This document shows, piece by piece, positions 12,270-59,378 of a stretch of 64,000 nucleotides of DNA. A model generated the notes under the pieces. It saw only the letters and a list, made by a program, of their open reading frames with translations, had not been told where the DNA came from and ran no database searches. Numbering within the stretch: the stretch's first letter is position 1; every line of letters starts with the position of its first letter. The DNA is from an uncultured Desulfobulbia bacterium. Lineage in GTDB: Bacteria; Desulfobacterota; Desulfobulbia; Desulfobulbales; CG2-30-60-27. A program made the translations under genes and the position numbers. Location of the stretch: the NCBI GenBank assembly GCA_964443295.1, contig CAYUCH010000001.1, positions 57,456 to 121,455 of the forward strand, in the 5' to 3' direction.

Positions 12270-12476
12270 CCACAGCAATGTATAATTCCAGCGAAAAAAT
12301 CGATAAATGATCAGCAGAACCATATTACAGCAGAGAGAGCATAGCCGTTGTTTTATCGTCTCTTTTTCCCACTTTACGGCAACAGCCTTTCATGATATCC
12401 TAGACCACATTAGGCAGGTCTACTCCTTTGGTGGGCCAGTATCTTTAAATTTAAACATGATCCTGGATGGCGCCCC

Positions 12477-33975: not shown

Positions 33976-34074
33976 AGGTTCCTGGTTTTTCGGAATCACA
34001 AGGGCAATTGCTCTATCCTAAACCTTTGAACCTTGAACCCTGAACGTTGAACCTGCAACCGGAGTATCGCTTAA

Positions 34075-40512: not shown

Positions 40513-40519
40513 ATACATT

Positions 40520-41767
40520 ATGGAAGAGTTAATACACGTACATGGTATGGAATGGACGGCCAAGGAGCTCTTTACCTACCCTAATGAGTTCATCTATTGG
40601 AGTATTCAGATTGTAATGTACCCGTATATGACCGGGCTGGTGGCAGGAGCTTTTGTCCTTTCGTCCCTTTATCATGTTTTTGGTCAAAAGGACCTGAAAG
40701 ACATAGCGAAGTTTTCACTTGTTTTTTCTTTGGCCCTGTTGCCGGTGGCCATGATGCCGCTTATGTTGCATTTGCAGCAACCCTTGCGTGGTATGAACGT
40801 AATGTTCACACCCCATTTTACTTCTGCCATTGCTGCTTTCGGTATTGTCTTTACCTTTTACGCTATGATTGTTTTAAGTGAAATCTGGTTTGTCTACCGA
40901 GAATTTTTTGTCCAACAGACAATTGCCCTGAAAGACGATGATACCACCAGCGGCACTTTAAAACGCTGGACCTACCACCTTTTTTGTCTTGGCGCCTACA
41001 ACACTGATGAAGACTCCATCAGCAAAGACAAAAAAGCCGTTACAATACTTGCCGCCATCGGTATACCGGTTGCCTGCTTCCTGCATGGGTATGCCGGTTT
41101 CATTTTTGGCTCTGTTAAAGCAAACGCACTCTGGATGTCACCTCTTATGCCGGTTATCTTCATTATGTCTGCCGTTGTTTCCGGCATTGCTCTTTGCATG
41201 CTGACATATATTATCATTATGGAATTCAAACATTTTAGTACCGCTTTTGCCAAGGGCAGGGGAGATGAATCGGTACAATTAATCCGCGGTGTAGAGATGG
41301 ACGTCATTACTAAGGCTTCCAAATATCTCATTGGTTTCCTGGTTGCGGCTATCAGCCTGGAGCTGCTTGACTTAATTTTCAGGGGGTATACCGCCATGAA
41401 GTCGTGGGATATCCTCCGAACGGTCATGTTTAAAACTGACTTTATAAAAATCTTTATCTTGCAGTATGGCCTGGGCAACTTATTGCCATTTGCCCTCCTT
41501 TTGATGCCTAAACTCACCATTAGACGCACCGTTGTTGCTTTGTTGCTCATTCTCTTCGGTGTCTTTATGATGCGTTGGAATGTTGTCATAGGCGGGCAGG
41601 CATTTTCTCTGTCATTTGCAGGATATATGCATTACCACATGCCAATTATCCCCCATCACCTTGAAGCATATAAAGAAGGCTTACTTGGTGCTCTGACAGT
41701 TATGGCGACACCTTTTCTGCTTTTCTGGCTTATAAACAAATTTGTCCCGTCTTTACGCTACGATTAA
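40520..41767 (+). CDS. NrfD/PsrC-family quinone-interacting membrane subunit
   Basis: 415 aa, about 10 TM segments, directly downstream of the FeS subunit. Confidence 0.8.
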   Translation: MEELIHVHGMEWTAKELFTYPNEFIYWSIQIVMYPYMTGLVAGAFVLSSLYHVFGQKDLKDIAKFSLVFSLALLPVAMMPLMLHLQQPLRGMNVMFTPHFTSAIAAFGIVFTFYAMIVLSEIWFVYREFFVQQTIALKDDDTTSGTLKRWTYHLFCLGAYNTDEDSISKDKKAVTILAAIGIPVACFLHGYAGFIFGSVKANALWMSPLMPVIFIMSAVVSGIALCMLTYIIIMEFKHFSTAFAKGRGDESVQLIRGVEMDVITKASKYLIGFLVAAISLELLDLIFRGYTAMKSWDILRTVMFKTDFIKIFILQYGLGNLLPFALLLMPKLTIRRTVVALLLILFGVFMMRWNVVIGGQAFSLSFAGYMHYHMPIIPHHLEAYKEGLLGALTVMATPFLLFWLINKFVPSLRYD

Positions 41768-41978: not shown

Positions 41979-43007
41979 ATGAAATTCACTGTCCGGCTTT
42001 CAAGCTATTTCTTTACTTTTTTGCTCCTTTTTAATATCCCTGCTGTCCATCCCTTTCCTTTCCGTGAGATTTCCGTCGGTAATCCTGTACCAAATGTAAA
42101 TCTACAAAGCTTCAATGAGCACAATTCGATAACTTTTTCCCGATACAAAGGCAAACCGTTCATCGCCGTTTTTTGGGGAGCTGACCTGACGGAAAAATTG
42201 AATCGATCATCACACGTTCTAACAGGTATGGAAAGCATGGCCACTTTCCTGGCAGAGCGTGATATCCAAGTGCTTTCTGTCAACACCCAGGGTGATAATC
42301 GGGATATAATCGATGAAGTAGTCAGGCTATCCCAAAGCAGCTATCCCGTATATCTGGATCAGGACCGAGAAGCCTACAGGCTCCTCGGTATCTTTGTTAT
42401 GCCAGCAATACTATTGATTGATAAGGACGGCAATATCGTAGCCGGAATGGGATATTCTCACAATATTATCGATCAACTTAAGGGTGCTGTTGAAATAATG
42501 CTGGGAGAAAAAACAGCAGAACAGGTACAGGCCGATCTACAACCCAAAATGATTGACAAGTCTTCTCGAGAAAAAAGTGGGAACCGGCATCAAAATTTAG
42601 GCATGGTTTTATTAGAAATGGGAATGACGGATAGAGCCATCTCAGAATTCAAGAAAGCACTGGAACTCAATAATTCTCTCAGCCAGCCCCATATAGAGCT
42701 TGGCTGTCTCTATGTTGAAAAGAATCAGTTGATTTTGGCAGAGGTTGAACTCTCTAAAGGACTTGAACTTGCACCCGACTCTCTTCGCGGGAGGACCTGT
42801 GAAGGAATACTCAAAATGGAAAGCGGCCATTTAGACGATGCCGCGAAAGACTTTAAATCAATTCAGGAGATAACACCATCAAGCCACGAACCACACTACC
42901 TTCTCGGCAAGGTTTATGAGGCCCAAAACATGCTAGACAAGGCCATTGTCGAGTATAAACAGGCATATGTACTACTCAATCGCAGGCGAGCTGACATAGA
43001 CGAATAA
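41979..43007 (+). CDS. secreted redoxin(TlpA)-fold protein lacking the CxxC motif, fused to TPR repeats
   Basis: Has a signal peptide and a redoxin-like N-terminal domain. The expected WxxxCxxC position reads FWGADLTEK, with no Cys. The C-terminal half has TPR-like repeats. Confidence 0.55.
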   Translation: MKFTVRLSSYFFTFLLLFNIPAVHPFPFREISVGNPVPNVNLQSFNEHNSITFSRYKGKPFIAVFWGADLTEKLNRSSHVLTGMESMATFLAERDIQVLSVNTQGDNRDIIDEVVRLSQSSYPVYLDQDREAYRLLGIFVMPAILLIDKDGNIVAGMGYSHNIIDQLKGAVEIMLGEKTAEQVQADLQPKMIDKSSREKSGNRHQNLGMVLLEMGMTDRAISEFKKALELNNSLSQPHIELGCLYVEKNQLILAEVELSKGLELAPDSLRGRTCEGILKMESGHLDDAAKDFKSIQEITPSSHEPHYLLGKVYEAQNMLDKAIVEYKQAYVLLNRRRADIDE

Positions 43008-43031
43008 TCCTACACTATTTTTTCCAAAAAA

Positions 43032-43062
43032 AGAGGCGCCGGTGTTGAACTCCGGCGCCTCT
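43032..43062. terminator. bidirectional intrinsic terminator between convergent genes
   Basis: AGAGGCGCCGG-tgttgaact-CCGGCGCCTCT, flanked by an A-run upstream and a T-run downstream. Confidence 0.8.
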
Positions 43063-43091
43063 TTTGGGATTAATACTCTATAGCGTAACCG

Positions 43092-44555
43092 CTATTCCGG
43101 TTCATCATGGCAAAGTGCACAATCCTGGGTGATGGTATCACCGTTTTCATTCTCATGTTCTTCGTCATGACATCGCCAACAACCATACCCATCATCGGCA
43201 TATTGATGCCCCAGATGGCTTTTATAGGTACCCCAATGGATATCCATTCTCGGCCAAACATTGTTCAAATACGTTTCAAGGAGATATTCCCCGGTATTGC
43301 GGATCTCAGCCTCAAATTTCTGAGCTACTTCCGGGTCTCTCTCTTTCTGCATGGCCAATAACTTACCAATCATCTGGGCTTGGGCCTCGTCTCTATCGGT
43401 GTACCCAAACGTGAGAACAGCGAGACTGTCTTCACGGATACCTGGAATTTCACCATTGATCCGCTTACTCAAGAGACCAAAATCAACTCGCTCTTCCGGC
43501 ATATCATAGACATGGGTGGGTCGGTTATGACAATCGATGCAGTCCATAATCCTCCAACCGCCACCATGACCATCGTCCTCAGCAGGTTCATGTACTTCGA
43601 TGTCAGCCTTGACAAATTCATCTTTAGAACCGTCCGGCCTTTTCACCCTGACCTTGCCAATCTCGGTTCGCTTCTGATCTGCAGCAAGATAGCTCACCTC
43701 AACATCCTGGCTGACATGCCAGTGAATTCCTTCAAAAGCATCGGTAACAGGATTCCGCCCACCAATATGGAGTGCAATATCAGCTACTTCGGGATTCACT
43801 TGGTCTTCATCGCTGAAACTTGTAAAACTCTTGACTTTTTTGCCATGGAATTTTTCAGGCCAATGGCACTCTTCGCAGATGTCCGGGGCGGGGCGCAGAT
43901 GTTCTACCGGAGCGGCAATGGGTCGGGAATATGTATCTGCCACCACTGCAACAACCTGACGCAATCCTGAAATCTTTGCTTTTACAAACCAACCTGCCCC
44001 GGAACCAATATGACACTCAACGCAAACAACTTTCGCATGGGGAGAGCGCTGATACACCTCATATTCAGGCTCCATAACGGTATGACAAACCTTGCCACAG
44101 AAATAGGGGGAATCGCTGAAATGATACCCTTCATAAGCGACAAAGGCCAAAATACAAAAATTTATCACTGTTAATACGATAAATCCAACGACCCAGCGAC
44201 GATGCTTATGGTCACTTAAATTTATTTTAAGATGCTCCCTGGATATACCATATTTATACCATTTCCTTCGTCGCAGATAAGCTGCAAAAGGAATTAGCAG
44301 CAAACCGGTTATCATCCCACCAGGCAAAATAAGATATGTGAAAAATCCAGCATATGGATTGTCGAAATACCCAAACAAATCGACAAGCGTCCCTATTACC
44401 AATAAGGTGGTGCTGACTGTAGTAATGGTGACACCCATCAGGCCCAGAGGCGAGCGCCACATGCCACGAATTATATTACTCCATGGACTCCGAGACAGTT
44501 GTTCAGAGTCCTCCCCTTTATTTTCTTCTTTTTGATTTGTCTCATTTTCAGACAT
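43092..44555 (-). CDS. inner-membrane multiheme c-type cytochrome (3 TM helices plus a NapC/NirT-like heme domain)
   Basis: Five CxxCH motifs (CVECH, CEECH, CIDCH, CWRCH, CALCH) plus one CxxxCH (CGKVCH). Three N-terminal hydrophobic helices. The architecture is reminiscent of ImcH-type quinol-oxidising cytochromes (from memory, not aligned). Confidence 0.75.
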   Translation of the reverse strand: MSENETNQKEENKGEDSEQLSRSPWSNIIRGMWRSPLGLMGVTITTVSTTLLVIGTLVDLFGYFDNPYAGFFTYLILPGGMITGLLLIPFAAYLRRRKWYKYGISREHLKINLSDHKHRRWVVGFIVLTVINFCILAFVAYEGYHFSDSPYFCGKVCHTVMEPEYEVYQRSPHAKVVCVECHIGSGAGWFVKAKISGLRQVVAVVADTYSRPIAAPVEHLRPAPDICEECHWPEKFHGKKVKSFTSFSDEDQVNPEVADIALHIGGRNPVTDAFEGIHWHVSQDVEVSYLAADQKRTEIGKVRVKRPDGSKDEFVKADIEVHEPAEDDGHGGGWRIMDCIDCHNRPTHVYDMPEERVDFGLLSKRINGEIPGIREDSLAVLTFGYTDRDEAQAQMIGKLLAMQKERDPEVAQKFEAEIRNTGEYLLETYLNNVWPRMDIHWGTYKSHLGHQYADDGYGCWRCHDEEHENENGDTITQDCALCHDEPE

Positions 44556-44678
44556 AAACAGCCTCCTCCCACATTTTTTTTTAACTTAGAGCTTCAAGAA
44601 TTTTTCAGCACGTATAAATTACTCACAGATTCAGAGAGCACATTTCGCCCTGGACTCGTGACAATTTCAGTATAAGGC

Positions 44679-44695
44679 TTGCAATATAAATGCCA
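44679..44695 (-). promoter_or_regulatory. sigma-54 (-24/-12) promoter upstream of the multiheme cytochrome gene
   Basis: The minus strand reads TGGCAT-ttata-TTGCAA. GG/GC spacing is canonical. It lies about 125 nt upstream of the ATG at 44555. Confidence 0.7.
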
Positions 44696-44820
44696 GACAG
44701 GACTTTTTTTTCATACTTCTTCTCAACCACCCCAAGTTGAGACACAAATCGCCTGTCTTACGACCTTTTTTCACACCCCTTACAGCCGCCACCTCCTTTT
44801 CATTGGTTCCGTGAACACCC

Positions 44821-44870
44821 CATTGTTGCAACAATTATGTTGCAACACACCTGTCGCATGCAACACATGA
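44821..44870. promoter_or_regulatory. TGCAACA repeat cluster (candidate enhancer/UAS)
   Basis: TGCAACA occurs at 44827, 44841 and 44859. The first two lie inside TGTTGCAACA palindromes. The cluster is 130-180 nt upstream of the sigma-54 promoter at 44679..44695. Confidence 0.5.
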
Positions 44871-44876
44871 AACACT

Positions 44877-46673
44877 TTAGCTCCCTGCTACAACAGGTAG
44901 GTCCAGCAACACTGTAGTATGATTTCCAGCCACACTATCTACGGAAAGTTTGCCGCCATTTTCTTCCACCAGAAATTTACTGATTGTCAAACCGAGTCCT
45001 GTGCCACCATCCTTGCCTTTGGTTGAGAAAAATGGCTCCATAAGACTGGAAAGCACTTCAGGCTCCACACCAACTCCCCAGTCGGTAACCGAACTCCGCA
45101 ACCAATTACGACCTTCGGAATAAACAACTTCCCCGTGTACTTCTAATTTCTTTTGCTCGTCTCTGGCCGGGAATCGCTCGTTAAGGGCATGGCGAGCATT
45201 CATAAATACATTTAAAAACACCAAATGCATATGCTCTTTATTGACATGCACTGCCGGCAACTCAATTGGGAAAGCCACGTCCAAAATTATTCCATCATTT
45301 TTTAAGAGTTGGTCCACAAGGGAAAGTGCTTCTCCCACCACTGTAGCCATAGGAACAGAATCCTTCGCTTTCCCTTGCTCCCGTGCTAAGTATTGAACTT
45401 GGTGCAACACTGTTGCCGCACGCTCACCATCACGGACCATATTGCTGAGCAATCCCACCTTGGCACTATCTTTTTCTTGTTGACCAAATTCATCCAGCAA
45501 AACTTGGCCATAGTTAATTATGCCGTTAATGAGGTTAGAAACTTCATGAACTACGCCAGAACAAAGCTCGCCAATTGCCGCCAAGCCGCACACTCTAATC
45601 GTCAGATCGGAAAGGCCGGCGTTTTGATCATCACCTTTCTGTGCTACAACAAGACAGAGCGAAGGAGCTCCACATTCAGGAAAAGAAATTTTAAACCGAA
45701 TACGTTTACCAAATCCGTCTGGCAGAACGTGAAAGGACGAGGACTCATCCGCTTGCAAAGCCTTAACAAGCTGAGACGCCTGATTTGATCCTATATCATT
45801 GAAAAACAAAGAAACAACTGAAAAACCATGGATGACATCGAGGTCACGGCCTAAAAAACGTGCCGCTGCTTCATTAGCCTTAAGCACCTCTCCCTGGGCA
45901 TCCACCAGGAACAGGGCATCATCAGTGCTACTGAAGAGCAATTCTGCCTGAGCTTGATACGTTACAGCTTTTTCAGAACTATCCAGCCATTGCTCTTGCA
46001 ATTGGCTGTGTGTTGACGCCAACAATGAAAGCTCATCAAAAGCTTGACTGTCGTACTGCAAAGGTGCCTTGCCTGAATCATCTTTTTGTATTTGGCGGGC
46101 AATACCAATGATAGGCACGGCGAGCTTTCTATACCATAGGACCAGGAGAAAACTAAAAATACAAAGAACAATGGCAAGTCCACCGATCACAACATTTTGA
46201 AAACGAACCAACGTCGCTTTGGCCTGGCCGACGATAATCCGGTCAAACCGCATAAGACGATCACCCAGAAGTCGCATTTTCACGTTGAGTTCATTGGCTA
46301 GACTTTGCTTGTCTGTCTCTGCTTCAATTTTTCGCAAAAGCAGTACAATCCCGGAGAGATCGACTTGATTGATAAAGGTTAATTTATATTCACCTGGAAT
46401 CAGGCTATTCTCTAATAATCCGGAAAGGGCGGTATTTAATGATTCAATTTCTTCTACAATGGGACCCAATTGTTGATAGCGACCAGCCAGTAGCGACTCG
46501 GTTACATGGTCTCGAATGGTGGCAAACTGAAAAATGAGTTTTTCACTTTGGTCAATGATTGAGTCATACCTGCCGGCCAGAGAGTATTGACGCACTCCCA
46601 TCATTAATACGACGCACAAGATAACGGCCGCTGTCAAGGTCGTGCCATACAGGGTTTTTCTCAGTGAAAACAT
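44877..46673 (-). CDS. membrane sensor histidine kinase
   Basis: Has an N-terminal TM, an extracytoplasmic region, a second TM and a PAS-like segment. H-box is HEVSNLINGIINY. The HATPase domain carries GTGLGLTISKFLV. Its ATG directly abuts the ftsH stop (TAAATG). Confidence 0.85.
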   Translation of the reverse strand: MFSLRKTLYGTTLTAAVILCVVLMMGVRQYSLAGRYDSIIDQSEKLIFQFATIRDHVTESLLAGRYQQLGPIVEEIESLNTALSGLLENSLIPGEYKLTFINQVDLSGIVLLLRKIEAETDKQSLANELNVKMRLLGDRLMRFDRIIVGQAKATLVRFQNVVIGGLAIVLCIFSFLLVLWYRKLAVPIIGIARQIQKDDSGKAPLQYDSQAFDELSLLASTHSQLQEQWLDSSEKAVTYQAQAELLFSSTDDALFLVDAQGEVLKANEAAARFLGRDLDVIHGFSVVSLFFNDIGSNQASQLVKALQADESSSFHVLPDGFGKRIRFKISFPECGAPSLCLVVAQKGDDQNAGLSDLTIRVCGLAAIGELCSGVVHEVSNLINGIINYGQVLLDEFGQQEKDSAKVGLLSNMVRDGERAATVLHQVQYLAREQGKAKDSVPMATVVGEALSLVDQLLKNDGIILDVAFPIELPAVHVNKEHMHLVFLNVFMNARHALNERFPARDEQKKLEVHGEVVYSEGRNWLRSSVTDWGVGVEPEVLSSLMEPFFSTKGKDGGTGLGLTISKFLVEENGGKLSVDSVAGNHTTVLLDLPVVAGS

Positions 46674-48560
46674 TTAGGCAGCACTCGGCATATGGGAACA
46701 ATGAGCTGCAGCCGGGCATGTGCTGCAATCGTGATGTTCGTCTGTCACATCATGTTCCTTGTCTTTTTCTTTTTTAGCCTGTTTTTTCTGGGTGCAATCA
46801 AAAATAATCTGCAACTCCTCACTGTCTAACGTCTCGGTCTGTAAGAGAATCTCAGCAAGGTTACTCAAAAAATCCTTTTCATTCTCCACAATGGCAACTG
46901 CATCTCTATAGCAACTTTCCACAAGGTCTCTTACTTCTTTATCAATACGCCGAGCGGTTTCTTCACTGTGAGCCATAAGCGCTGTCTGATCACCTAAAAA
47001 ACCACTGGAATCCTTAGCATAGGACAAAGGCCCCATAGCCTCACTCATCCCCCACTTACAAACCATTTTTGTGGCAATATCCGTAGCGCGCATAAGATCA
47101 TCCTGGGCTCCGGTGGTCTGCTGATGCAAAATCACCTCTTCTGCGGCCCTGCCACCCATAAAAATAATGATCTTATTCCGCAGATACTCTTTGGAATAGG
47201 CATGCCTGTCTTTGAGAGGCAATTGCTGCGTATGCCCCATGGCCTGTCCCCGGGGAATAATAGTAATTTTATGCAGAGGATCTGATTCGGGCAGATAGCG
47301 TGCCATAATGGCGTGACCAGCCTCATGGTATGCCATGGTCCGCCGGTCCTTCTCGGTAATCACCAATCCCTTCCGTTCAACACCCATCAATATTCGATCT
47401 TTGGCTGCTTCAAAATCCGGCAGCTCAATAACATCTTTCCCTTGGCGTGCGGCCATAAGCGCAGCTTCGTTTACAAGGTTGGCAAGTTCCGCTCCGGTAA
47501 AGCCCGGTGTGCTTTGAGCGACACTATGCAGGTCTATATTTTCTGCCAAGCTGACCTTTTCGGAGTAGACCTCAAGAATTTTAAATCGCCCCTTCACATC
47601 AGGAGCCAAAATATTTATTTGCCGATCAAAACGGCCGGAACGGAGTAAAGCCGGATCCAGAATATCAGGCCTATTTGTTGCGGCAAGTACAACGATGGTA
47701 TCTTTCGAACTAAATCCATCCATTTCTACCAAGAGAGCATTCAGTGTTTGACCGCGTTCATCCTGGCCACCGCTCATTCCTGAACCTCGATGCGCCCCTA
47801 CGGCATCAATTTCATCAATAAAAATAATACTGGCTGGATTCTTTTTAGCCTCCTTAAAAAGATCACGAACCCTGGAAGCGCCAACCCCCACAAACATTTC
47901 AACAAAATCAGAGCCACTGAAGCTATAAAAAGGCACGCCAGCCTCACCGGCAATAGCCCGGGCGAGAAGTGTCTTTCCTGTCCCCGGGGGGCCCTGCAGC
48001 AAAACCCCTTTGGGAATAGAAGCGCCAATGCGGCTGAAATGCTCTGGATTTTTAAGAAATTCGATGATCTCCAAAAGCTCTTCTTTTGCCTCGGGTATCC
48101 CCGCCACATCTTTAAAGGTTACCTGTTTTTCGCTGGCACTATATTTAATCACCTTATCTTTGGTGAATTCACTTTCATCCTCTCCACCTTGCTGCTTGCG
48201 GAATAAATAAATCCAAATTCCAAGCACAAGTAACATCGGAATGATAATCGAAATGGCATTCCACAGAATAGAAGACCGATCAGGACTGGCGGAAAAGGTG
48301 ACATCTTTCTCTATTAACTTTGGCAGCAAACTTCCTACTTCAGGTGAAAATGTGGCAAACTCCCGGTCAAACTCATCGGTAAACCGGATGTCTCCCCCCT
48401 GCAATTCAACCTCGGCAATCTTTCCTTGCTCCAATTTAGTAAGGAACTCAGTATATGGCAGGCTTTCCAATTTGTTTTCCAGGTTCCAGAAAACAACTGC
48501 TGATATTCCAATACTGGCTAAAATGAGGAGAATAAAGAGATTGCGAATGAGAATAACCAT
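46674..48560 (-). CDS. ftsH: ATP-dependent zinc metalloprotease FtsH (with a Cys/His-rich C-terminal tail)
   Basis: Carries Walker A (GPPGTGKT), the SRH, and the zinc motif HEAGHA. The C-terminal tail reads [26 protein letters not shown]. Confidence 0.9.
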
Positions 48561-48648
48561 GAGCGTTCCTTAAAAGGCCGGGATCCCAAGTGAACAATTA
48601 CGTTCCCGACTGTGGGTTGTATCGCGTCAAAAGAGTACGACACTTTTG

Positions 48649-48665
48649 TTGCAATGAGAATGCCA
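48649..48665 (-). promoter_or_regulatory. sigma-54 (-24/-12) promoter upstream of ftsH and the kinase
   Basis: The minus strand reads TGGCAT-tctca-TTGCAA, about 90 nt upstream of the ftsH ATG. Confidence 0.65.
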
Positions 48666-48761
48666 CCATGTTGTATATATTTCTAATCAAATTTACTCAT
48701 GATTACCAGAAATTATCACGGTTATTTAACAACACATATTTCCACTGTTGCTGCTACCCTT

Positions 48762-48802
48762 AAAAAAAAAGCCGGTGAAGGGTTTGCCTACCCCTCACCG
48801 GC
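48762..48802 (-). terminator. intrinsic terminator after the small-gene array
   Basis: The minus strand reads GCCGGTGAGGGG-taggcaaa-CCCTTCACCGGC, followed by T9. Confidence 0.85.
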
Positions 48803-48836
48803 TCAAAATAAGAACCAATTTTTGCTTGCCGCTTAT

Positions 48837-49082
48837 TTAACCACCGAGTACTGCTTGAACCCAGGCTGATACGAAATTAAGCGGATTTCCTGCGCTCATA
48901 AGGCCGCCCAGTAAGAAAAGCAGCCCCATGGTACCAACCACACCGCCAACAGCGAGGATCGCGATAAGACCAACCTTACTGACCTCAAGATCCACTTCGG
49001 TGTTTTCGCCAGCATGGCTTAGTACACCGGTGTTGTTGTGTTCCCTAGTTTTTGCGATAGCAACTGATGATGTATCTTTCAT
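48837..49082 (-). CDS. small membrane protein, paralog 4 of the tandem array (81 aa, most divergent)
   Basis: RBS AAGGAG. The C-terminal block GLLFLLGGLMSAGNPLNFVSAWVQAVLGG aligns with the three upstream paralogs. Confidence 0.7.
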   Translation of the reverse strand: MKDTSSVAIAKTREHNNTGVLSHAGENTEVDLEVSKVGLIAILAVGGVVGTMGLLFLLGGLMSAGNPLNFVSAWVQAVLGG

Positions 49083-49108
49083 TATATTTCTCCTTAAATA
49101 ATAGAATA

Positions 49109-49333
49109 TTAAATACCCAGAACGGCGCTAAACCAATCTTTAACAAATGCCAGTGGACCACCACTACTTATCAATCCACCGACCAAGCAGGCCACACCCC
49201 AGACGCCTATAAGAGCGGCGACAAAACCAATAACTGTTATTCCGACCCGAGAGACTTCAACATCAACTTGTCCTGCAGACTGGGTAGCTGCTTTTATCTC
49301 GGTGTTAGCTTGTATCGGGTTGTCCTGGGCCAT
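49109..49333 (-). CDS. small membrane protein, paralog 3 of the tandem array (74 aa)
   Basis: RBS AGGAGG. The C-terminus is SRVGITVIGFVAALIGVWGVACLVGGLISSGGPLAFVKDWFSAVLGI. Confidence 0.75.
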   Translation of the reverse strand: MAQDNPIQANTEIKAATQSAGQVDVEVSRVGITVIGFVAALIGVWGVACLVGGLISSGGPLAFVKDWFSAVLGI

Positions 49334-49377
49334 TTTATCCTCCTACACTCAATCTTTCTCAATATTTCAAGCTGTCA

Positions 49378-49596
49378 TTAACCCATAACAGCGCCGAACC
49401 AACTTTTTACGAATGCAAGTGGGCCACCACTTTGAACAAGGCCACTTACCATACATGCTACTGCCCATAGTCCGATAAGACCTGAAGCAACAGCAAATCC
49501 GCCGACACCGATCTTAGAAATTTCTGTTTCCACATGGGAAGCATCTTGGGTGCGGGCATTAATTTCAGTTTTTGTTTTATTGGTTGCAGTGTTCAT
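49378..49596 (-). CDS. small membrane protein, paralog 2 of the tandem array (72 aa)
   Basis: The internal ATG at 49596 has RBS AAGGAG and gives MNTATNKTK... The C-terminus is SKIGVGGFAVASGLIGLWAVACMVSGLVQSGGPLAFVKSWFGAVMG. The longer track ORF overlaps paralog 1. Confidence 0.75.
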   Translation of the reverse strand: MNTATNKTKTEINARTQDASHVETEISKIGVGGFAVASGLIGLWAVACMVSGLVQSGGPLAFVKSWFGAVMG

Positions 49597-49643
49597 GTTG
49601 ATCTCCTTTTCAAGTGAATTATTGGGTCGCTCGAGTTCTATAA

Positions 49644-49856
49644 TTAACCGCCAATTACGGCGCTCATCCATGTACCGATGAAGGACAGAGGGCCACCACT
49701 CTGAACCAGCCCACTTACCAGACATACAATCCCCCATACTCCGATCAAACCGCCGGCGATGAACATCGCTGTAATTCCAACCTTGCTCAGCTCACCATCT
49801 AAAGTAGCGTCTGTTGATTTCGTGATTGCTTTAGTTTGAGTTGTTGCGCTTGTCAT
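49644..49856 (-). CDS. small membrane protein, paralog 1 of the tandem array (70 aa)
   Basis: RBS GGAGG. The C-terminus is SKVGITAMFIAGGLIGVWGIVCLVSGLVQSGGPLSFIGTWMSAVIGG. Confidence 0.75.
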   Translation of the reverse strand: MTSATTQTKAITKSTDATLDGELSKVGITAMFIAGGLIGVWGIVCLVSGLVQSGGPLSFIGTWMSAVIGG

Positions 49857-49906
49857 GTTTTTATCCTCCGTTAGAAGTGTTTTTGTTGCTTTGTGAAAAG
49901 TCTATA

Positions 49907-49923
49907 TTGCAATGGCAATGCCA
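49907..49923 (-). promoter_or_regulatory. sigma-54 (-24/-12) promoter upstream of the small-gene array
   Basis: The minus strand reads TGGCAT-tgcca-TTGCAA, about 50 nt upstream of the ATG at 49856. Confidence 0.7.
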
Positions 49924-50284
49924 AAAAGAAATAAATATTTAAAGAAACCAGATAACACACTGAAAATATTATATTATTTTTTTTATATTTTTTTGGCACA
50001 CTATTGTCCTTTTTTCACTCAAACTAGCTAACATACTTAAATAATTATACTTTTTCAGATATAGCTAACAAGAAGCTCAGAAACTCCGGCGTGGAGAGAA
50101 AATCACCAGGCAACTTTCAGGTCTATATAAGGAAAGGGAGACTAAAACGGGGTGGGTTTGAACGTAACGCAACACTCATTTTGATGAAAAAGATAGGGTG
50201 TGAAGATTGTCAGCAACGGCACAAATATTTGTAATTACTACAAAAATAATAATTATTTCAATTTCACCACATCAAAACCATGCC

Positions 50285-50340
50285 ACATTTGCAACACATG
50301 CAACACAACACAGGTGTTGCAAATGTGTCGCAACAAACAT
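50285..50340. promoter_or_regulatory. TGCAACA/TGTTGCA repeat cluster (candidate enhancer/UAS)
   Basis: TGCAACA at 50290 and 50299, its complement TGTTGCA at 50316, and CGCAACA at 50329. The reverse complement aligns with the 44821..44870 cluster (GTTGC[A/G]ACA ... TGCAACAC..CTGT). Confidence 0.5.
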
Positions 50341-50345
50341 ACGCG

Positions 50346-52178
50346 CTACACTTTTACAGCGTTTAATTCGATTTTGTAGGTGTGCATTTTTCTATAAAGA
50401 GTACTGCGGTCCATTCCAAGAATTCGTGCAGCCTTTGCCTTGTTTCCACCAGCTTTATGCAAAGCAGCAAGGATTCGTTGAGGTTCATCTAATCCATCAT
50501 CCACAGTTTCTTCAATAACCTCGATCTTCTTCTTAGCTGTATCGCTGATGTGGCGCCGCTCTACTGGATAAGATCGAGAATCTTCCTTTATGGATGATTG
50601 AGCAAGTTCTCCGTGCCGTATTTCTTCAGGGAAATGATCCAAGGTTAAAGTAGAGCCTTCACACAGAATACAAGCTCTTTCCATAACGTGTTCAAGCTCT
50701 CGAACATTACCAGGCCATCCAAAATTTCTGAGAGCTTCCATGGCCTGATCTGAAATCCCACTAATTTCCCGACCTAGCTTCTCCTGGAATTGCGACAGAA
50801 AATGGGCCACAAGGATTGGAATCCCCTCATATCTTTCACGTAGAGGGGGTAATTTAATTTCCATAACCCGCAAACGGAAAAAAAGGTCCTCACGAAAATC
50901 ACCATCTAAAACTTTCTTTCTCAGGTCTGCATTGGTTGCGGCAACAACTCTCACGTCTACCTGAATGGGACGGTCACGTCCGACTGGATAAAAAGACCGC
51001 TCCTGGAGAAATCGTAACAGCCGGAGTTGCATGCGGGAAGAGATGTCACCTATCTCATCGAGAAATAATGTACCGCCGTCGGCCTGCAGGATCCTTCCCA
51101 TCCGATCTCGATCTGCTCCGGTGAATGATCCCTTTTTATGACCGAACAACTCACTCTCAAGAAGATCATCGGTAATTGCTGCACAATCAACCTTGACCAA
51201 TGGCTTATTATGCCGTGGACTTTCCGCATGCAGCGCCTCAACAGCCAACTCTTTGCCGGTCCCTGATTCACCTGTGATCAGTACAGTTGTATCGACCTTA
51301 CCAACATTTTCTATTAGAGAATAAACAGACTGCATAGCCGGGCTCGAGCCGACATATCGATGAAAACGAGATCGTTTGGCCCTGTTACTGCTTTCCTCAA
51401 GACTTGTTACATCTCGGGCAACAAAAACAACCCCCTGAAACCCACCACTTCCATCCTGGAGCGGCGCAGCATTGAGACTGAGAATTTTTTTACCACCATC
51501 TGGCCGAGAACACTCAACACGATGCTCACGAACCTCCTCACGGGTGCGCAACACTTTCTGGGCATCTTTCAGGCAACAATTTCGCATCCCCTCAGGAAGC
51601 ATCTCAAGTGAAATGGGGGTATTACTTTTCAATCCCATGCCGCCCATCCACTCTTTGGCCATCTCATTGAAATGCACAACCTGCATTTCATTATCCACAG
51701 TGATTATGGCATCACGCACTGATCGAAAAATCGTATCAAGATATTGCCGATAATGCTCATTTTCCTTCTCAAGCCTCTTTTTCTCTTTTTGCAAATGCCA
51801 TTGCTTGAGGGCCTGTCTGGTAAATTTGAGCAGCGTTTCCTTATTGACGGGCTTGGGAATATAATCAAAGGCACCTAAGCGAACAGCCTCGGCAGCTGTT
51901 TGCAAATTTGGAAAACCAGTGATCATCACCACTGGACATTGCACATTGGCCGCGCGAATTTCACCCAACAGATCGGTACCGGAAGTGCCTTCGAGAACAA
52001 TATCGCTGATGATGAGATCAAACTCATGTTCATGAATAGCTGCCAAAGCCTCCTGATAGGTAGCAGCCGTGCGAACCGGCCCGTAGCCTTCCCTTGTAAG
52101 GAACATCTCAAAAGTAAGGCGAAGGCTCTCTTCATCATCAACAATTAATATGCTGGTTGAATCTTTTTTTGCATCCAC
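50346..52178 (-). CDS. sigma-54-dependent response regulator (REC-PAS-AAA+-HTH, NtrC family)
   Basis: The receiver carries ILIVDDE ... IISDIVLEGTSG. The AAA+ domain has Walker A GESGTGKE and a GAFTGA-type loop (KKGSFTGA). The C-terminus is a Fis-type HTH (AARILGMDRSTLYRKM). Confidence 0.9.
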   Translation of the reverse strand: MDAKKDSTSILIVDDEESLRLTFEMFLTREGYGPVRTAATYQEALAAIHEHEFDLIISDIVLEGTSGTDLLGEIRAANVQCPVVMITGFPNLQTAAEAVRLGAFDYIPKPVNKETLLKFTRQALKQWHLQKEKKRLEKENEHYRQYLDTIFRSVRDAIITVDNEMQVVHFNEMAKEWMGGMGLKSNTPISLEMLPEGMRNCCLKDAQKVLRTREEVREHRVECSRPDGGKKILSLNAAPLQDGSGGFQGVVFVARDVTSLEESSNRAKRSRFHRYVGSSPAMQSVYSLIENVGKVDTTVLITGESGTGKELAVEALHAESPRHNKPLVKVDCAAITDDLLESELFGHKKGSFTGADRDRMGRILQADGGTLFLDEIGDISSRMQLRLLRFLQERSFYPVGRDRPIQVDVRVVAATNADLRKKVLDGDFREDLFFRLRVMEIKLPPLRERYEGIPILVAHFLSQFQEKLGREISGISDQAMEALRNFGWPGNVRELEHVMERACILCEGSTLTLDHFPEEIRHGELAQSSIKEDSRSYPVERRHISDTAKKKIEVIEETVDDGLDEPQRILAALHKAGGNKAKAARILGMDRSTLYRKMHTYKIELNAVKV

Positions 52179-52227
52179 GATAAAAGTCCAAGTTGGTAAA
52201 TTTTAATATGACACTCTGCCATTTTCT

Positions 52228-53778
52228 TCAGCCTTCCTCTGCATCAACATACTCACTAGTGTTGTCTACCTTTCTACCATCAACTGGAATATCCACAGTT
52301 ATTATGGTGTAATTATCCAGCACCGAATCCACCCGCATAACTCCACCATGATCACGAACAATTCCATGGGTAATAGACAGTCCTAGCCCGGTACCTTCCC
52401 CCGGTGGTTTGGTGGAAAAAAAAGGGTCAAAAAGTCGCTCTAAAATACCTTGAGGCATCCCCTTTCCCCAGTCCATCACCATGGTTCGCACATGCTCCTC
52501 ACCATCAACATCCACTGCGTGACAGCTTATGCGCAATTTCTTTTCCGGATCCTGCTGGGGATATCGTTCGTTCAAAGCGTATCGACTGTTGCTGAGCAAA
52601 TTTAAAATAACCTGCTGAAGTTGCTGGGCATTACCATGCAGTGGGGGCAAATCATCTTCAATTTCCACCGCAAAATTAATACCGTCTTTTTTTATCTGGT
52701 GCTGCACCAAAGTCAGACTGTCTTGAATCACTGCAGACATTTCAACATTGTGATCTTCATGCTCACTCTCCCGGGCAAAAGATAACAATTTATAAATGAT
52801 GGAGGATATCCGTTCTCCTTCTTTAATAATCCGTTGCAACAGGTCATTTTTTGTCACATCCTCACCGACATCGTCCATGAGAACCTGGGCATAATTAATT
52901 ATGCCGTTAATGGGGTTATTTATCTCATGCGCAACACCTGCGGCCAACTCACCGATTGCCGCCAATTGCCCGGTCCGCATAGCTTCCAGTTTGCGAACCT
53001 CTTCCTTGGTGAGATCCCGGGCAATTAACATGATCTGGCGAACCTCGCCATTCAGGTCCGGAACCGGTGAGACGGTGAGCAAATACTCTCCAAACAGACC
53101 AGGAAGTTTGGTCTCCATGATTTTTCGAGAACGGGTTAAAAGTAATTCTTCCAAAGGACATTTTATGTGGGGAAGTCGACCACCATGGATTATCTGACAA
53201 ACGCCATATCCAATAATTTCTTCTCTGGTCTTGCGAGCTGCATGGATAGTGGCTGGATTGACATCGCTAATTTTACCCTCGGGTGTAACAATGAGAATGG
53301 GATCCTGAACAGCGTTAAAAACCTCCCCCCACCCTGGCTGGGAAGGGCCAATATACTGTTCCCGAAATTTAAACTCCGTTACGTAAAAACCAAGATGGCG
53401 CATACCATCACGTAATTTATCCCAGGTAACGGGCTGAACGATGAAATCGCTGGCCCCGGCCTCAAATGCTCGGTCCACGGAAGAATCATCATCATCAGGG
53501 ACAACGAGAATGATCAAACTTCTTTCCGCATTGGGAAGTTTCATTATCTGGCTGCAGAGATAATAGCCGCTGGTATCCGGCAAGTTGCCATCCAGAATTA
53601 CTACATCGGGCTGATTTCGTATAAAAGATGCCAGGGCGGATTCACCATCTTCCACATCTTCTACGTTATAGCCACTAATTTCTAAAAATCGACGGATCAT
53701 AAGCCGCTGCTCACGATCGGAGTATGCAACTAAAAACTGTGACCAATTTTTTTTGGTCTTAGAAGGACTTTTTTCCAT
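52228..53778 (-). CDS. hybrid sensor kinase with an N-terminal receiver (REC-PAS-HisKA-HATPase)
   Basis: The receiver is VVILDGNLPDTSG, the H-box is HEINNPINGIINY, and the HATPase domain carries GTGLGLSITHGIV. Confidence 0.85.
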   Translation of the reverse strand: MEKSPSKTKKNWSQFLVAYSDREQRLMIRRFLEISGYNVEDVEDGESALASFIRNQPDVVILDGNLPDTSGYYLCSQIMKLPNAERSLIILVVPDDDDSSVDRAFEAGASDFIVQPVTWDKLRDGMRHLGFYVTEFKFREQYIGPSQPGWGEVFNAVQDPILIVTPEGKISDVNPATIHAARKTREEIIGYGVCQIIHGGRLPHIKCPLEELLLTRSRKIMETKLPGLFGEYLLTVSPVPDLNGEVRQIMLIARDLTKEEVRKLEAMRTGQLAAIGELAAGVAHEINNPINGIINYAQVLMDDVGEDVTKNDLLQRIIKEGERISSIIYKLLSFARESEHEDHNVEMSAVIQDSLTLVQHQIKKDGINFAVEIEDDLPPLHGNAQQLQQVILNLLSNSRYALNERYPQQDPEKKLRISCHAVDVDGEEHVRTMVMDWGKGMPQGILERLFDPFFSTKPPGEGTGLGLSITHGIVRDHGGVMRVDSVLDNYTIITVDIPVDGRKVDNTSEYVDAEEG

Positions 53779-53887
53779 TTATAATTCCTCGCTCTAGGAA
53801 AAAAAGGACCAAACGTATCAGATTATGTGCCTTTTATTTTTTAATTTCTTGCGGAGTTTTTACTATTTCACGATATATGGCCGAACC

Positions 53888-54868
53888 TTATCCACCTATT
53901 GTAGCCATGGATTTTTTAACCGCCGACCCTTGAGTTGCCTCTGCCTCAAATCCATTCTTTGCCCTTTGAGCCACACAATGTCTGAGAATATCACCAATCT
54001 CTCTGTCCGTTTTTTCACTCCTGAGCAATTGCCTGAGATCGAGAACACCATCATCGTAAAGACAGGTTTTCAATTGACCGCGTGAAGTTATGCGCAACTT
54101 ACCACAGCTACCGCAGAAAGTACGTGAATATGCTCCTATAATTCCAACTTTGCCTAAAAATCCTGGAACCTTAAGAATTTTGGCTGTACCCGAAACCCCT
54201 TCGGTCAATTCCAGGTCTGGATATCGCTGTTGAAGGCGATTAATAATTTCCGCCGATTTCCAACCTTCTCCCACCCCGGAACAACCACCGGAAAATGGCA
54301 TCTGCTCAATAAACCGCACTTCAATGGGCTGGCTGCGTGCTAATTCTGCAAGATCAATGATCTCATCATCATTGATGCCCTCTTGAATGACTGAATTCAC
54401 CTTGAGGGGGATATCCAAAGCAAGAGCCTGCTTTATAGTCTCCAGGACTGCTTGCATTTGGTCGCGCCTGGTTATGGATTTAAAGCGTTCGGGCTTGAGG
54501 GTGTCCAGGCTTACATTCAATCCGGAAATGCCCAGTTTTTTTAGGCCATCAAGCTCTGGCGCCACAGCAACTCCGTTGGTCGTGAGGCTGAGTATTTCAA
54601 GACCGGGCATGGATTTTAGCCTTTTCAAAAAAACCATGAGTCCTTTGCGGACAAAAGGCTCCCCCCCAGTTATCCTTACTTTATTAACTCCCATGCTGAC
54701 AAATATGCTCACCAGCCGTTCGAGCTCATCTAAAGATAAAATTTCTTCCCGCGGGAGAAAATCAATCCCCTCAGCCGGCATACAATACACACAACGCAAA
54801 TTGCACCTGTCGGTAATGGCAAGTCTAATATATGTAATGTCCCGACCATGGTTGTCGATCAATTGCAT
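53888..54868 (-). CDS. moaA: GTP 3',8-cyclase (molybdenum cofactor biosynthesis protein A)
   Basis: Carries the radical SAM motif ITDRCNLRCVYCMP, the C-terminal cluster CGSCGKLRITSRGQLKTCL, and a GG tail. The start is uncertain (54868 or further upstream, up to 54976). Confidence 0.9.
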   Translation of the reverse strand: MQLIDNHGRDITYIRLAITDRCNLRCVYCMPAEGIDFLPREEILSLDELERLVSIFVSMGVNKVRITGGEPFVRKGLMVFLKRLKSMPGLEILSLTTNGVAVAPELDGLKKLGISGLNVSLDTLKPERFKSITRRDQMQAVLETIKQALALDIPLKVNSVIQEGINDDEIIDLAELARSQPIEVRFIEQMPFSGGCSGVGEGWKSAEIINRLQQRYPDLELTEGVSGTAKILKVPGFLGKVGIIGAYSRTFCGSCGKLRITSRGQLKTCLYDDGVLDLRQLLRSEKTDREIGDILRHCVAQRAKNGFEAEATQGSAVKKSMATIGG

Positions 54869-55098
54869 ACCATCGTCTTTAGGCGGGGTATTCTTATTTT
54901 CCGTTTTTAAAACCACAAAAAACTCCTCTAAATTTATTAGACGCAACAACCTTCTTTTTTGACATATTTCATGCAATACCGCAAGGTATCGCAGTCATAT
55001 GGTTGCCCCTACATTATTCTTCAATAAATACATGTTCCCTGGTATTACATAAATTGATACAATGTATCCATCTTCAATGAAATTCGGGAATACAGGCC

Positions 55099-57650: not shown

Positions 57651-59378
57651 ATGAATTGCACACGTAAACTGGCAAGCAAAACGCTTGCCCTTTCACTGGT
57701 TAGTGCTTTAGCACTGCCAGCCGCGGCCTTAGCCGCTCCTTCAGCCAACGACCTGGCTGCCAAATATGATGCACTACAAAGAGAGATGGAAGAACTCAAA
57801 GCAGAAATGGAAGAGTTCAAGGGAGATACCGAAGAACAACTGGAAGCCATGGATGAAAAATCCGAAGACTGGACCCTGGCATCCCGTATTACAATCTCCG
57901 GCGATATCCGCTCACGAATTGATTGGAATGACACCAAAGTACCTGAATACTGGAATGCCCGCGAAGTTGCCGTAGCAATGCGAAATTTCCAAATGGTTAA
58001 TGAAAATTCAACGCCGGATAACATGAACACTGCGTTCAATCAATTTGCCGGAATGGCACCCACTGTTGCTGAACGTCGAGGCATGATGGCAATGGGCGGT
58101 GTTGCTGCTCAACCAGAAACAGATTATGACAATGACAGTGTTTACACCACTCGTTTACGTCTCAATTTCCGAGTGAAAGCCACTGAAAATGTGGAAGTAA
58201 AAGCCCGCCTTGTAGGATATAAACTCTGGGGCATGGATAGTCCGCTTCATTCTGAAGAAGGCATCGATGGTGTGTACAGCCCATACTTTTTGACCAGTCG
58301 TTCTTTTGACGGTACCAATGGTCGTCAGCCAGGCAACAGCGCCATCATGATGGATCGCGCTTTCATGAACTGGAACAACATCGCCGGTATGCCTTTATGG
58401 TTCTCCATCGGACGCCGCCCCACCAGTGATGGTCCTCCAGCCCACCTTCGCATGGGAATGGATAAAAGAATGGCTACCCCAATCAATTATATGGACTACC
58501 CTTTTGATGGTGTCTCCGTAGGATATGCATACGCTGCTCCATTTGACATGGAAGGATCAGGACGGGTCCGGATTTGTTACGGTCGTGGTTTTGAAGCAGG
58601 TTCCAAAGTTGATGGCGTTGGCATGAACGATGTGGACTTTGCTGGAGTGAGTTGGGATGTATATAAAAGTGGCTCCCGCTTTATCAACATCCAATCTTTT
58701 GGTGCTTTCAATATCTTCAACGTACCAGGTGACACCAATTACCCCAACCCAATTGAGATTGCTGCCAAGTATGATGAAAACACACCAAACAATCCATACG
58801 CCGATAGCGAAGACATCTACCTTGACCGTAAAAATCTTGGCAACATATACCACACCAGTGCCCTGTATCTCGACAAAGTCGGCGGTCTCAACTACTTCTT
58901 GACCGGTGGCTGGAGCCGTACCGCTGCCAAAGGAATCGACGAGTTGGGTGCAAGCCTTCTTGGTTCTTGGGGTGCTACACCAGAGGACAAGGACGGTTAT
59001 GGTGTATATTTTGGTGTACGCTACGATATGGACGAACTTGGCCTGAAACTTGGTGCTGAGTACAACTGGGGTTCTGAAAACTGGTTGGCCTTCACACCTG
59101 GCCATGATGACATGTACTCCAGCAAGCTCTACACCCGTGGTTCAGTTTACGAAGTATATATGGTATATGACCTGCCAAGCGGCGAGGCTTTCTCTAAATA
59201 CGGTAAAGCCTTCATGCGCTTAGGATATCAGCATTATTCTTATGATTACACCTACAGTGGAATGTGGCTGGGAACACCTGCTGACATTGATGATCTCGCC
59301 GATCCGCTTACCGCACAATTCTATGCCCCAATTGAAGAGATGGATCAGATCTATCTCACCTTTGAGGCAGCATTCTAA
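57651..59378 (+). CDS. outer-membrane beta-barrel protein / porin-like, with an N-terminal coiled coil (possibly DUF3373-like)
   Basis: Has a signal peptide (ALALPAAALA-AP) and a coiled coil (YDALQREMEELKAEMEEFK). Alternating aromatic/Gly-rich beta-strand patterns follow. The C-terminus is TFEAAF, with a terminal Phe. Confidence 0.6.
   Translation: MNCTRKLASKTLALSLVSALALPAAALAAPSANDLAAKYDALQREMEELKAEMEEFKGDTEEQLEAMDEKSEDWTLASRITISGDIRSRIDWNDTKVPEYWNAREVAVAMRNFQMVNENSTPDNMNTAFNQFAGMAPTVAERRGMMAMGGVAAQPETDYDNDSVYTTRLRLNFRVKATENVEVKARLVGYKLWGMDSPLHSEEGIDGVYSPYFLTSRSFDGTNGRQPGNSAIMMDRAFMNWNNIAGMPLWFSIGRRPTSDGPPAHLRMGMDKRMATPINYMDYPFDGVSVGYAYAAPFDMEGSGRVRICYGRGFEAGSKVDGVGMNDVDFAGVSWDVYKSGSRFINIQSFGAFNIFNVPGDTNYPNPIEIAAKYDENTPNNPYADSEDIYLDRKNLGNIYHTSALYLDKVGGLNYFLTGGWSRTAAKGIDELGASLLGSWGATPEDKDGYGVYFGVRYDMDELGLKLGAEYNWGSENWLAFTPGHDDMYSSKLYTRGSVYEVYMVYDLPSGEAFSKYGKAFMRLGYQHYSYDYTYSGMWLGTPADIDDLADPLTAQFYAPIEEMDQIYLTFEAAF

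Follow-up and report, generated by a model that had tools for sequence, protein, structure and literature searches.

The 64,000-nt stretch of DNA analysed here (hereafter the window; metagenome contig CAYUCH010000001.1 of assembly GCA_964443295.1, from an uncultured Desulfobulbia bacterium) carries an array of four small genes on the minus strand, sp1–sp4. They were delineated from the list of open reading frames (ORFs) and an alignment, and encode predicted single-pass membrane proteins of 70 (sp1, 49644–49856), 72 (sp2, 49378–49596, with its ATG at 49596), 74 (sp3, 49109–49333) and 81 amino acids (sp4, 48837–49082). Each start codon is preceded by a strong Shine–Dalgarno sequence (GGAGG or AAGGAG, 6–9 nt 5′ of the ATG). 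The four proteins align end to end with 16 invariant columns, sp2–sp4 being 37–48% identical to sp1, and share one layout: a variable hydrophilic N-terminus, an E-x-S-K/R-V/I-G junction, a glycine-rich hydrophobic helix and an SGGPL...W...AV.G tail. The divergent subtype sp4 has a GNPLNF tail and a helix that lacks the Trp and Cys present in the helices of sp1–sp3; this subtype recurs among the relatives described below (P0005, P0009, P0014, P0022 and P0025). A protein identical to sp1 is already on record (P0006).

Upstream of sp1, a pattern scan located a near-consensus –24/–12 site for sigma-54, P1 (TGGCATTGCCATTGCA, 49908–49923, minus strand), whose TGGCAT-N5-TTGCA core ends 52 nt 5′ of the sp1 ATG. 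With the GG and GC dinucleotides of the TGGCAC-N5-TTGCA pattern 10 nt apart, a position within 30–200 nt upstream of the gene and a bacterial enhancer-binding protein (bEBP) available, P1 is a predicted sigma-54 promoter; five sites of this pattern class lie in the window, compared with 0.24 in shuffled sequence. The array closes with an intrinsic terminator after sp4 (48760–48804, minus strand; stem and T tail at 48769–48804) that combines a 15-bp stem containing nine GC pairs with a T9 tail (folding energy –31.9 kcal/mol, z = –4.6). Directly upstream on the same strand, domain searches identified a sigma-54 activator of REC-PAS-sigma54_activat-HTH_8 architecture (50346–52178; an AAA+ protein with a GSFTGA loop) and a REC-PAS-HisKA-HATPase kinase, HK1 (52228–53778). 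A first-pass annotation of this stretch, made from sequence alone, had named the four genes with their ribosome-binding sites, the common paralogous architecture, the canonical promoter, the strong terminator and an NtrC-type activator with a hybrid kinase next to it, and all of these elements hold up. As detailed below, the unit extends beyond the interval of that annotation (48762–49923): the ftsH-HK2 genes and an ImcH-like cytochrome gene carry the same TGGCAT-N5-TTGCAA element in the window, and pairing of the small proteins with a particular FtsH is near-obligate. This pairing is the principal link, and the annotation missed it.

Database searches placed sp1–sp4 in no characterized family, in agreement with the first-pass annotation, which had also set them apart from PspG/PspB-like, Flp-like and bacteriocin-like peptides; the respective Pfam models gave no match. 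Pfam scans with hmmscan (sp1–sp4 at E ≤ 10; 85 family members at E ≤ 1) and searches of NCBIfam, PHROGs and PADLOC returned nothing significant. The best curated match was Phage_holin_3_6 (Holin-X, PF07332) at E = 0.07 and 13.6 bits, against a cutoff of 28.4, and PHROGs gave nothing below E = 0.04. The best sequence match in the PDB, to a hydrogenase membrane anchor, had E = 0.22. An AlphaFold2 (AF2) monomer of sp2 comprises helices at residues 4–56 and 59–71 (predicted local distance difference test score, pLDDT, 68), and a Foldseek search with the AF2 monomer found no match in the PDB.

The proteins are nonetheless no singleton oddity. A profile search of an indexed protein collection recovered 85 relatives, and a metagenome profile search yielded at least 266 representatives at 50% identity, 39 of them with E < 1e-10 and all 56–116 aa long; a further search with the 85-sequence profile gave few new homologs among the matches listed. 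Named relatives are few, and all are "hypothetical protein" entries from metagenome-assembled genomes (MAGs) of Desulfobulbaceae or Desulfurivibrionaceae. A scan for genomic loci, which used a single-protein query and so reached close relatives only, recovered 18 loci, all from MAGs; the informatively labelled ones are of Desulfobulbia type (Desulfocapsa, Desulfopila, Desulfofustis, Desulfobulbaceae), and the others are labelled merely as Delta- or Proteobacteria. Across 100 loci (numbered with the prefix L) we counted 178 family genes encoding 167 unique proteins with a median length of 74 aa, always in arrays of 1–12. Thus, sp1–sp4 belong to a sizeable, uncharacterized and undescribed family that is present in dozens of Desulfobulbia genomes. 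No description of the family or of the gene module around it was found in the literature searched.

Within the 167 unique members, the N-terminal tail averages 31 aa with 4.5 Lys and Arg residues and the C-terminal tail 21 aa with 0.8; by the positive-inside rule, these counts predict an N-in, C-out topology. The near-invariant residues are one Gly and one Trp of the helix, the kink Pro of GGP and a C-terminal Gly. The haem-binding motif CXXCH occurs in none of the 167 proteins, and no iron–sulfur (FeS) motifs were present.

Comparison with a related genome (L030, GCA_054043525.1), which has the same four genes in equal sizes and order, shows that the reading frames are conserved as coding sequence, a point on which the first-pass annotation could have failed. 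The window proteins are 70–81% identical to their L030 orthologs, with proportions of nonsynonymous differences (pN) of 0.13–0.16 and of synonymous differences (pS) of 0.60–0.79. Individually, the values are 74% identity, pN 0.15 and pS 0.79 for sp1; 78% and a ratio of nonsynonymous to synonymous rates (dN/dS) of 0.07 for sp2; 70% and dN/dS 0.15 for sp3; and 81% and dN/dS 0.06 for sp4. The pN/pS values resemble those of the flanking activator and FtsH genes. From these comparisons, sp1–sp4 are real genes under purifying selection.

The four window paralogs are only 32–52% identical to one another and saturated at synonymous sites, and must therefore be old duplicates, each of which has been kept, rather than products of recent amplification. 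Distinct subtypes stand in conserved array order elsewhere, as A/B pairs in L016–L021 and L027 and as 68/69/73-aa triads repeated in L028. Because the paralogs are ancient, retain 1:1 orthologs and occur as subtypes in fixed order, they suggest different subunits of a hetero-oligomer, a reading that fits these sequences better than simple dosage copies. The proposal of the first-pass annotation that tandem amplification serves dosage consequently fails as the main account of the window array, although units have been amplified recently in some loci. L028 (3346–8458), for example, contains 12 family genes arranged as four units; every unit has a sigma-54 motif, and in three of them a TGTYGCA-N11-GCRACA palindrome stands ~185 nt upstream. 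The arrangement looks like the recent amplification of a promoter-plus-triad cassette.

Sigma-54-type promoter motifs are a trait of the family as a whole. A TGGCAC-N5-xTGCA element precedes 66 of 83 arrays or sub-arrays, compared with 10 of 664 ORFs taken from those loci as controls, and its median distance to the start codon is 64 nt. The array also bears signals of abundant expression, namely the strong Shine–Dalgarno sites and a terminator before ftsH that recurs as hairpin and T-run elements between array and ftsH in L006, L007, L010, L028 and L031. In the window, two further perfect TGGCAT-N5-TTGCAA sites lie on the same strand as P1: P2 (TGGCATTCTCATTGCA, 48650–48665), 90 nt before ftsH, and P3 (TGGCATTTATATTGCA, 44680–44695), 125 nt before the cytochrome gene. 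A scan for sigma-70 promoters gave no enrichment, and an Rfam scan of 43000–54000 nothing meaningful.

The notional activator binding sites are palindromes of TGTTGC and GCAACA half-sites, which we regard as candidates. A cluster of such half-sites at 50289–50345 includes the palindrome TGTTGCGACAC-ATTTGCAACA (50315–50335), directly after the activator stop codon, and is a candidate upstream activating sequence (UAS) for P1; TGTTGCAACA palindromes at 44824–44866, in tandem at 44824–44847, are candidates for the same role at P3. Family-wide, a TGTYGC-N5-13-GCRRCA palindrome lies 145–360 nt upstream of 9 of 57 promoters, against 0.7 expected (~13-fold); the strict form is thus enriched, yet not universal. 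Activator orthologs are encoded directly upstream of the arrays in most loci, and an HK1-type kinase gene is kept upstream of the activator across loci. A gene for MoaA (GTP 3′,8-cyclase) stands immediately upstream of the kinase–activator pair both in the window (53888–54976, minus strand) and in L030 (5017–6045).

Turning to the downstream side of the array, the gene after the terminator (46674–48560, minus strand) encodes an FtsH protein with AAA and M41 protease domains. It scores 757 bits against TIGR01241 (cutoff 600) and retains the Walker motifs and HEAGH, but is unlike the E. coli-type equivalog (NF008004, 615 against 1008 bits). Its C-terminus ends in a Cys knuckle, HxCxTCPAAxxCxH. 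In the search seeded with the small proteins, ftsH lay immediately downstream in 12 of 23 loci. The reciprocal metagenome scan, seeded with the FtsH C-terminus, gave 80 loci, of which 52 had a complete ftsH and at least 800 nt upstream. Of these 52, 49 have one to five small-protein genes immediately before ftsH in the same orientation, at a median gap of 209 nt; among the three exceptions, one shows at the small-protein position a degenerate ORF of 63 aa with a single transmembrane (TM) helix. Collapsing FtsH into clusters at 90% identity leaves the association intact (30 of 33 clusters with small proteins upstream). The pairing is therefore near-obligate for this Cys-knuckle FtsH subfamily across metagenomes; the neighbourhood survey for bEBP, FtsH and cytochrome genes that the first-pass annotation had proposed is strongly positive.

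A CxxC-x4-6-C C-terminus is present in 46 of the 52 FtsH-seeded loci. The linked FtsH C-terminus (46674–46760 in the window, minus strand) shows an invariant HxCxxCPAxxxCxH and further conserved Cys residues upstream, with variants including CSTCTVKENCS; Cys-knuckle FtsH is also encoded in L006, L007, L009, L010, L028, L030, L031 and most of L033–L112. By its motif, the knuckle looks like a metal-binding, Fe-S or redox-sensing appendage, and we know of no description of such an appendage for FtsH. On the 25-kb contig JACKQG010002323.1 (L091 and L107), two complete kinase–activator–small protein–FtsH–c9–redox modules stand in tandem with differing FtsH C-terminal motifs (c9 is a sensor protein described below). 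As each module has its own ftsH, the protein must be a module-specific paralog rather than the housekeeping copy. Similar tandem modules are hinted at in L070, L080 and L084, where a gene for NrfD lies upstream and one for a kinase downstream.

Beyond ftsH, the genes follow a recurrent order: kinase, activator, small proteins (1–5), FtsH, c9, and then either an ImcH-like cytochrome or a cytochrome-c7-like protein with DsrO-like FeS and NrfD/DsrP-like proteins. FtsH is constant and c9 comes next in most loci; the redox genes vary. The c9 gene frequently overlaps the stop codon of ftsH. In its product (~300–320 aa), two TM helices flank a helical periplasmic domain and are followed by a degenerate DHp domain; an ATPase domain is absent. 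The H-box of true kinases, VAHEINNPINGIINYAQVL, aligns to IINESTNLSNGIINYAQLL in c9, the phospho-acceptor His being replaced by Asn, which on sequence grounds makes c9 a pseudo-histidine-kinase. Genes for c9 lie at 4958–5899 in L031, at 10543–11457 in L028 and in about 65 further loci. In the window and in L033, the c9-type sensor is fused to a genuine PAS-kinase, HK2 (44877–46673, minus strand), which joins a c9-homologous membrane sensor (residues 1–230; 45984–46673) to PAS, H-box and HATPase segments and whose start abuts the ftsH stop.

The next window gene on the minus strand (43092–44555) encodes a 487-aa inner-membrane multihaem cytochrome, assigned as ImcH-like by domain and motif evidence. 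It contains one CX3CH motif (CGKVCH) and five CX2CH motifs (CVECH, CEECH, CIDCH, CWRCH and CALCH), shows NapC/NrfH homology with Cytochrom_NNT and NrfH-like matches, and has three hydrophobic N-terminal stretches that we judged by eye to be TM helices. ImcH proteins are described as having ~490–520 aa, three N-terminal TM helices, an atypical CX3CH beside the TM region, at least five CX2CH motifs and NapC/NirT homology (PMC6295460, PMC4251993); the window protein fits this published architecture, the comparison being one of architecture. Homologs follow ftsH or c9 in many loci. In L024/L025 (Desulfobulbaceae bacterium A2), a single family gene precedes ftsH and an ImcH-like cytochrome gene with no adjacent activator, and the flanks carry type II secretion system/type IV pilus (T2SS/T4P)-type genes (GspF-like, GspE/MshE-like, secretin) and a rhodanese gene.

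Convergent with the module, a domain search identified a trio of genes on the plus strand (39272–41767) for a 156-aa cytochrome c, a DsrO-like FeS protein and a DsrP-like NrfD protein. Genes of these types come after ftsH-c9 in other loci, and we infer that the window trio belongs to the regulon of the module. It fits the dsrOhPh-tetrahaem locus type, which is of unknown function and has been discussed for Desulfobulbales and cable bacteria (PMC13047784). The plus-strand run extends to 43007, the trio being followed by a gene for an AhpC/thioredoxin-TPR protein.

We propose, with a probability of roughly 0.4, that the family members are abundant single-pass proteins, glycine-rich and N-in, which act together with the dedicated FtsH or are subject to its quality control, and that the module governs electron export from quinol to the periplasm. 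In this scheme, the likely switch for sigma-54 transcription of the array would be the REC-PAS activator encoded next to it, with input from the neighbouring kinases. Each small protein would possess an unstructured cytoplasmic N-tail of ~30 residues, a TM helix lined with glycine and other small residues, the SGGP kink and a short periplasmic amphipathic helix. The paralog subtypes would probably pack through the small-residue face into a hetero-oligomer, forming one unit with the downstream-encoded FtsH and its coupled sensor (c9, or HK2 in the window). The small proteins would most likely be clients or partners of the linked FtsH, which may take hold of the long N-tail and clear away subunits that are unassembled or in excess. 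Unstructured cytoplasmic tails of about 30 residues are reportedly the type of handle that FtsH uses, from work by Chiba, Akiyama and Ito. FtsH is known to remove uncomplexed SecY and F0-a, and PspC when PspB is absent (PMC3467454). The sensor could signal membrane state to the activator and thereby close a feedback loop, and the output may be the installation or turnover of quinol-oxidizing multihaem cytochrome complexes, either ImcH-like or of the cytochrome c/FeS/NrfD type.

Several observations weigh against this proposal. Adjacency cannot tell a client from a regulator, scaffold or co-effector, and the strong terminator between array and ftsH, in the window and in other loci, is as compatible with functions that are independent, or that only share a location, as with the tuning of stoichiometry. 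Some 9–10 arrays stand alone, with no ftsH, activator or cytochrome gene within 7 kb and unrelated housekeeping genes as neighbours (e.g., Fic, HAD, PNP, RecO, GpsA and CDF), from which it follows that the small proteins can work without an adjacent FtsH. Searches of L030 and L033, the two nearest relatives, found no equivalents of P2 and P3, so that these sites stand as predictions for the lineage of the window only. Finally, a makeshift AF2 multimer made by concatenating sp1–sp4 reached a pLDDT of 47 and did not model an oligomer. A bolder version of the proposal, which we regard as unlikely, is that the small proteins form, with the Cys-knuckle FtsH and the His-less pseudo-kinase sensor, an unrecognized, self-contained membrane device of Desulfobulbia. 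Here, glycine-rich helices induced through sigma-54 would build a defined hetero-oligomer; a redox- or metal-sensing FtsH would meter its abundance, the sensor would read it, and the device would gate the choice between ImcH-like and NrfD-type export complexes.

Among the closest known systems is the phage shock (Psp) response, in which PspF and sigma-54 control the small membrane proteins PspB, PspC, PspD and PspG. The psp operon contains pspA, and PspF-type activators are not known to carry a receiver domain. Conceivably, the small proteins are Psp-like effectors of envelope or proton-motive-force stress that seal or stabilize the inner membrane, with FtsH co-induced merely as general quality control and making no specific interaction with them. 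The parallels are enhancer-dependent sigma-54 transcription (here P1 and the bEBP at 50346–52178) of genes for small inner-membrane proteins of ~70–80 aa, a membrane-sensing component encoded in the same cluster as FtsH and, in Psp, the documented removal by FtsH of the orphan partner PspC (PMC3467454); the stand-alone arrays, too, agree with action independent of an adjacent FtsH. However, the window proteins have no sequence relation to PspB, PspC, PspD or PspG, the models for all of which, like that for PspA/IM30, gave no match, and no PspA/IM30 is found among the annotated neighbours. Membership in the Psp families was rejected accordingly. The activator differs from PspF in being a response regulator with REC and PAS input domains, fed by histidine kinases. 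Moreover, a specific partnership is favoured by the linked FtsH being a distinct, module-encoded Cys-knuckle paralog that has been duplicated along with the module, and the consistent companions are respiratory genes (multihaem cytochrome or NrfD). On this balance, we consider a Psp-like function improbable, if worth keeping in view.

Those respiratory companions raise a different and rather more doubtful idea, that the small proteins belong to the neighbouring quinol:cytochrome complexes as structural or anchor subunits, much as NrfD-type complexes have accessory single-TM subunits. Co-location with ImcH-like or cytochrome c/FeS/NrfD genes in more than 50 loci points this way, as does a single-TM protein, TMH1 (unrelated to our family, or of unknown relation), which was modelled into the DsrOhPh-tetrahaem complex of cable bacteria (2026, PMC13047784). 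That locus resembles ours in coming from Desulfobulbales and in placing an unannotated single-TM gene beside a cytochrome c, DsrO-like and DsrP/NrfD-like trio; it differs in that TMH1 is a single gene reported as unique to cable bacteria, with no FtsH or sigma-54 link described (PMC13047784), a comparison made by description only. Against a subunit role, the redox partner changes from locus to locus (ImcH-like only, c7 with NrfD and FeS, or FeS with NrfD) while FtsH does not, the arrays, of up to 12 copies, are bounded by a promoter and a terminator of their own, the stand-alone arrays have no redox genes nearby, and the small proteins carry neither haem nor FeS motifs.

The small-residue face that runs along the whole helix would also suit homo- or hetero-oligomeric channels or holin-like pore formers, with gene number setting the dosage, since such helices pack tightly; the first-pass annotation had suggested a dosage-dependent channel, besides envelope stress or a scaffold. 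Weak, sub-threshold Holin-X matches (E = 0.003–0.07) and the recent amplification of promoter-plus-triad units in L028 lean the same way. We nevertheless hold this to be quite improbable: the paralogs of the window are ancient and orthologous and not recent copies, the C-terminus is not charged, PHROGs and PADLOC were negative, and there is no phage or lysis context. Assignment as a holin was rejected, the best match falling far under its cutoff (13.6 against 28.4 bits) and the context being chromosomal and respiratory. Least probable of all is that the genes encode precursors of exported or processed peptides (bacteriocin, pheromone or pilin-like) with the variable N-terminus serving as a leader, for all that they are short tandem paralogs beside a two-component system, with a conserved E-x-S-K-V-G junction and, in L024, T2SS/T4P-type genes in the flanks. 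Precursors with leader peptides usually show a conserved leader and a variable core, the reverse of the variable N-terminus and conserved hydrophobic C-terminal part seen here. No conserved GG, G/FTLIE or Flp processing motif appears in the alignments, and the 100 loci share no conserved gene for a C39 transporter, a prepilin peptidase or a modifying enzyme. On the same evidence, we rejected assignment both as a ribosomally synthesized and post-translationally modified peptide or bacteriocin (variable N-terminus, no GG conserved at the junction, no C39-peptidase exporter in the neighbourhoods) and as an Flp/type IVb pilin (no Flp_Fap match, no G/XXXXEY in the alignments, no tad or prepilin peptidase gene conserved in 100 loci).

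Two other known systems bear comparison with the client-or-partner proposal. Short single-helix membrane proteins such as MgtR, SpoVM, MgrB and SafA affect FtsH-dependent degradation or a histidine kinase through contacts between helices, and are often feedback products of their own regulon. They differ from the window family in being single genes for proteins of 26–65 aa with no detectable similarity to it, and in not being known to form multi-subtype arrays, to depend on sigma-54 or to have an FtsH of their own. In Geobacter, the sigma-54 activator BccR controls the quinone-oxidoreductase operon cbcBA, which starts with two hypothetical proteins (10.1101/2021.04.15.440034). The likeness lies in a sigma-54 response-regulator activator beside a sigma-54-driven, redox-induced operon in which hypothetical proteins come first and which encodes an inner-membrane quinone oxidoreductase cytochrome (10.1101/2021.04.15.440034); the difference is that the cytochromes form a bc-type pair, neither ImcH-like nor of c/FeS/NrfD type, with no FtsH and no pseudo-kinase. 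The logic of the module resembles known sigma-54 membrane and respiratory regulons, while the protein family itself is unclassified.

In dozens of lineages, one conserved, promoter-defined unit joins an unannotated and widespread small-protein family, a specialized FtsH with a probable metal or redox knuckle, and a pseudo-kinase sensor. Desulfobulbia include sulfur disproportionators and relatives of cable bacteria, in which the routing of electrons out of the quinone pool is poorly understood, and the module adjoins cytochrome complexes of ImcH-like and DsrOP-like type, the roles of which are still to be established (PMC13047784). With one promoter, one activator and one protease, the module gives concrete points of experimental access. 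It is also a naturally occurring example of a membrane protease encoded beside small proteins that are likely its dedicated partners. Even if the link to FtsH proves trivial, the small-protein family merits an entry in protein-family databases.

Elsewhere in the window, a good sigma-54-type site on the plus strand (TGGCACGCATCTTGCT, 10222–10237) lies ~470 nt upstream of a glucose-6-phosphate dehydrogenase gene (10710–12269); no convincing ORF intervenes, and the interval could hold a long leader, a small RNA or a small protein. The segments 5203–13511 and 59676–62957 are rich in PAS domains, with three PAS/GGDEF proteins and a 1093-aa multi-PAS hybrid kinase. The window further contains a nuoL/M/N block of NADH dehydrogenase genes (31855–37031) and a gene for a DUF3373 protein (57651–59378).

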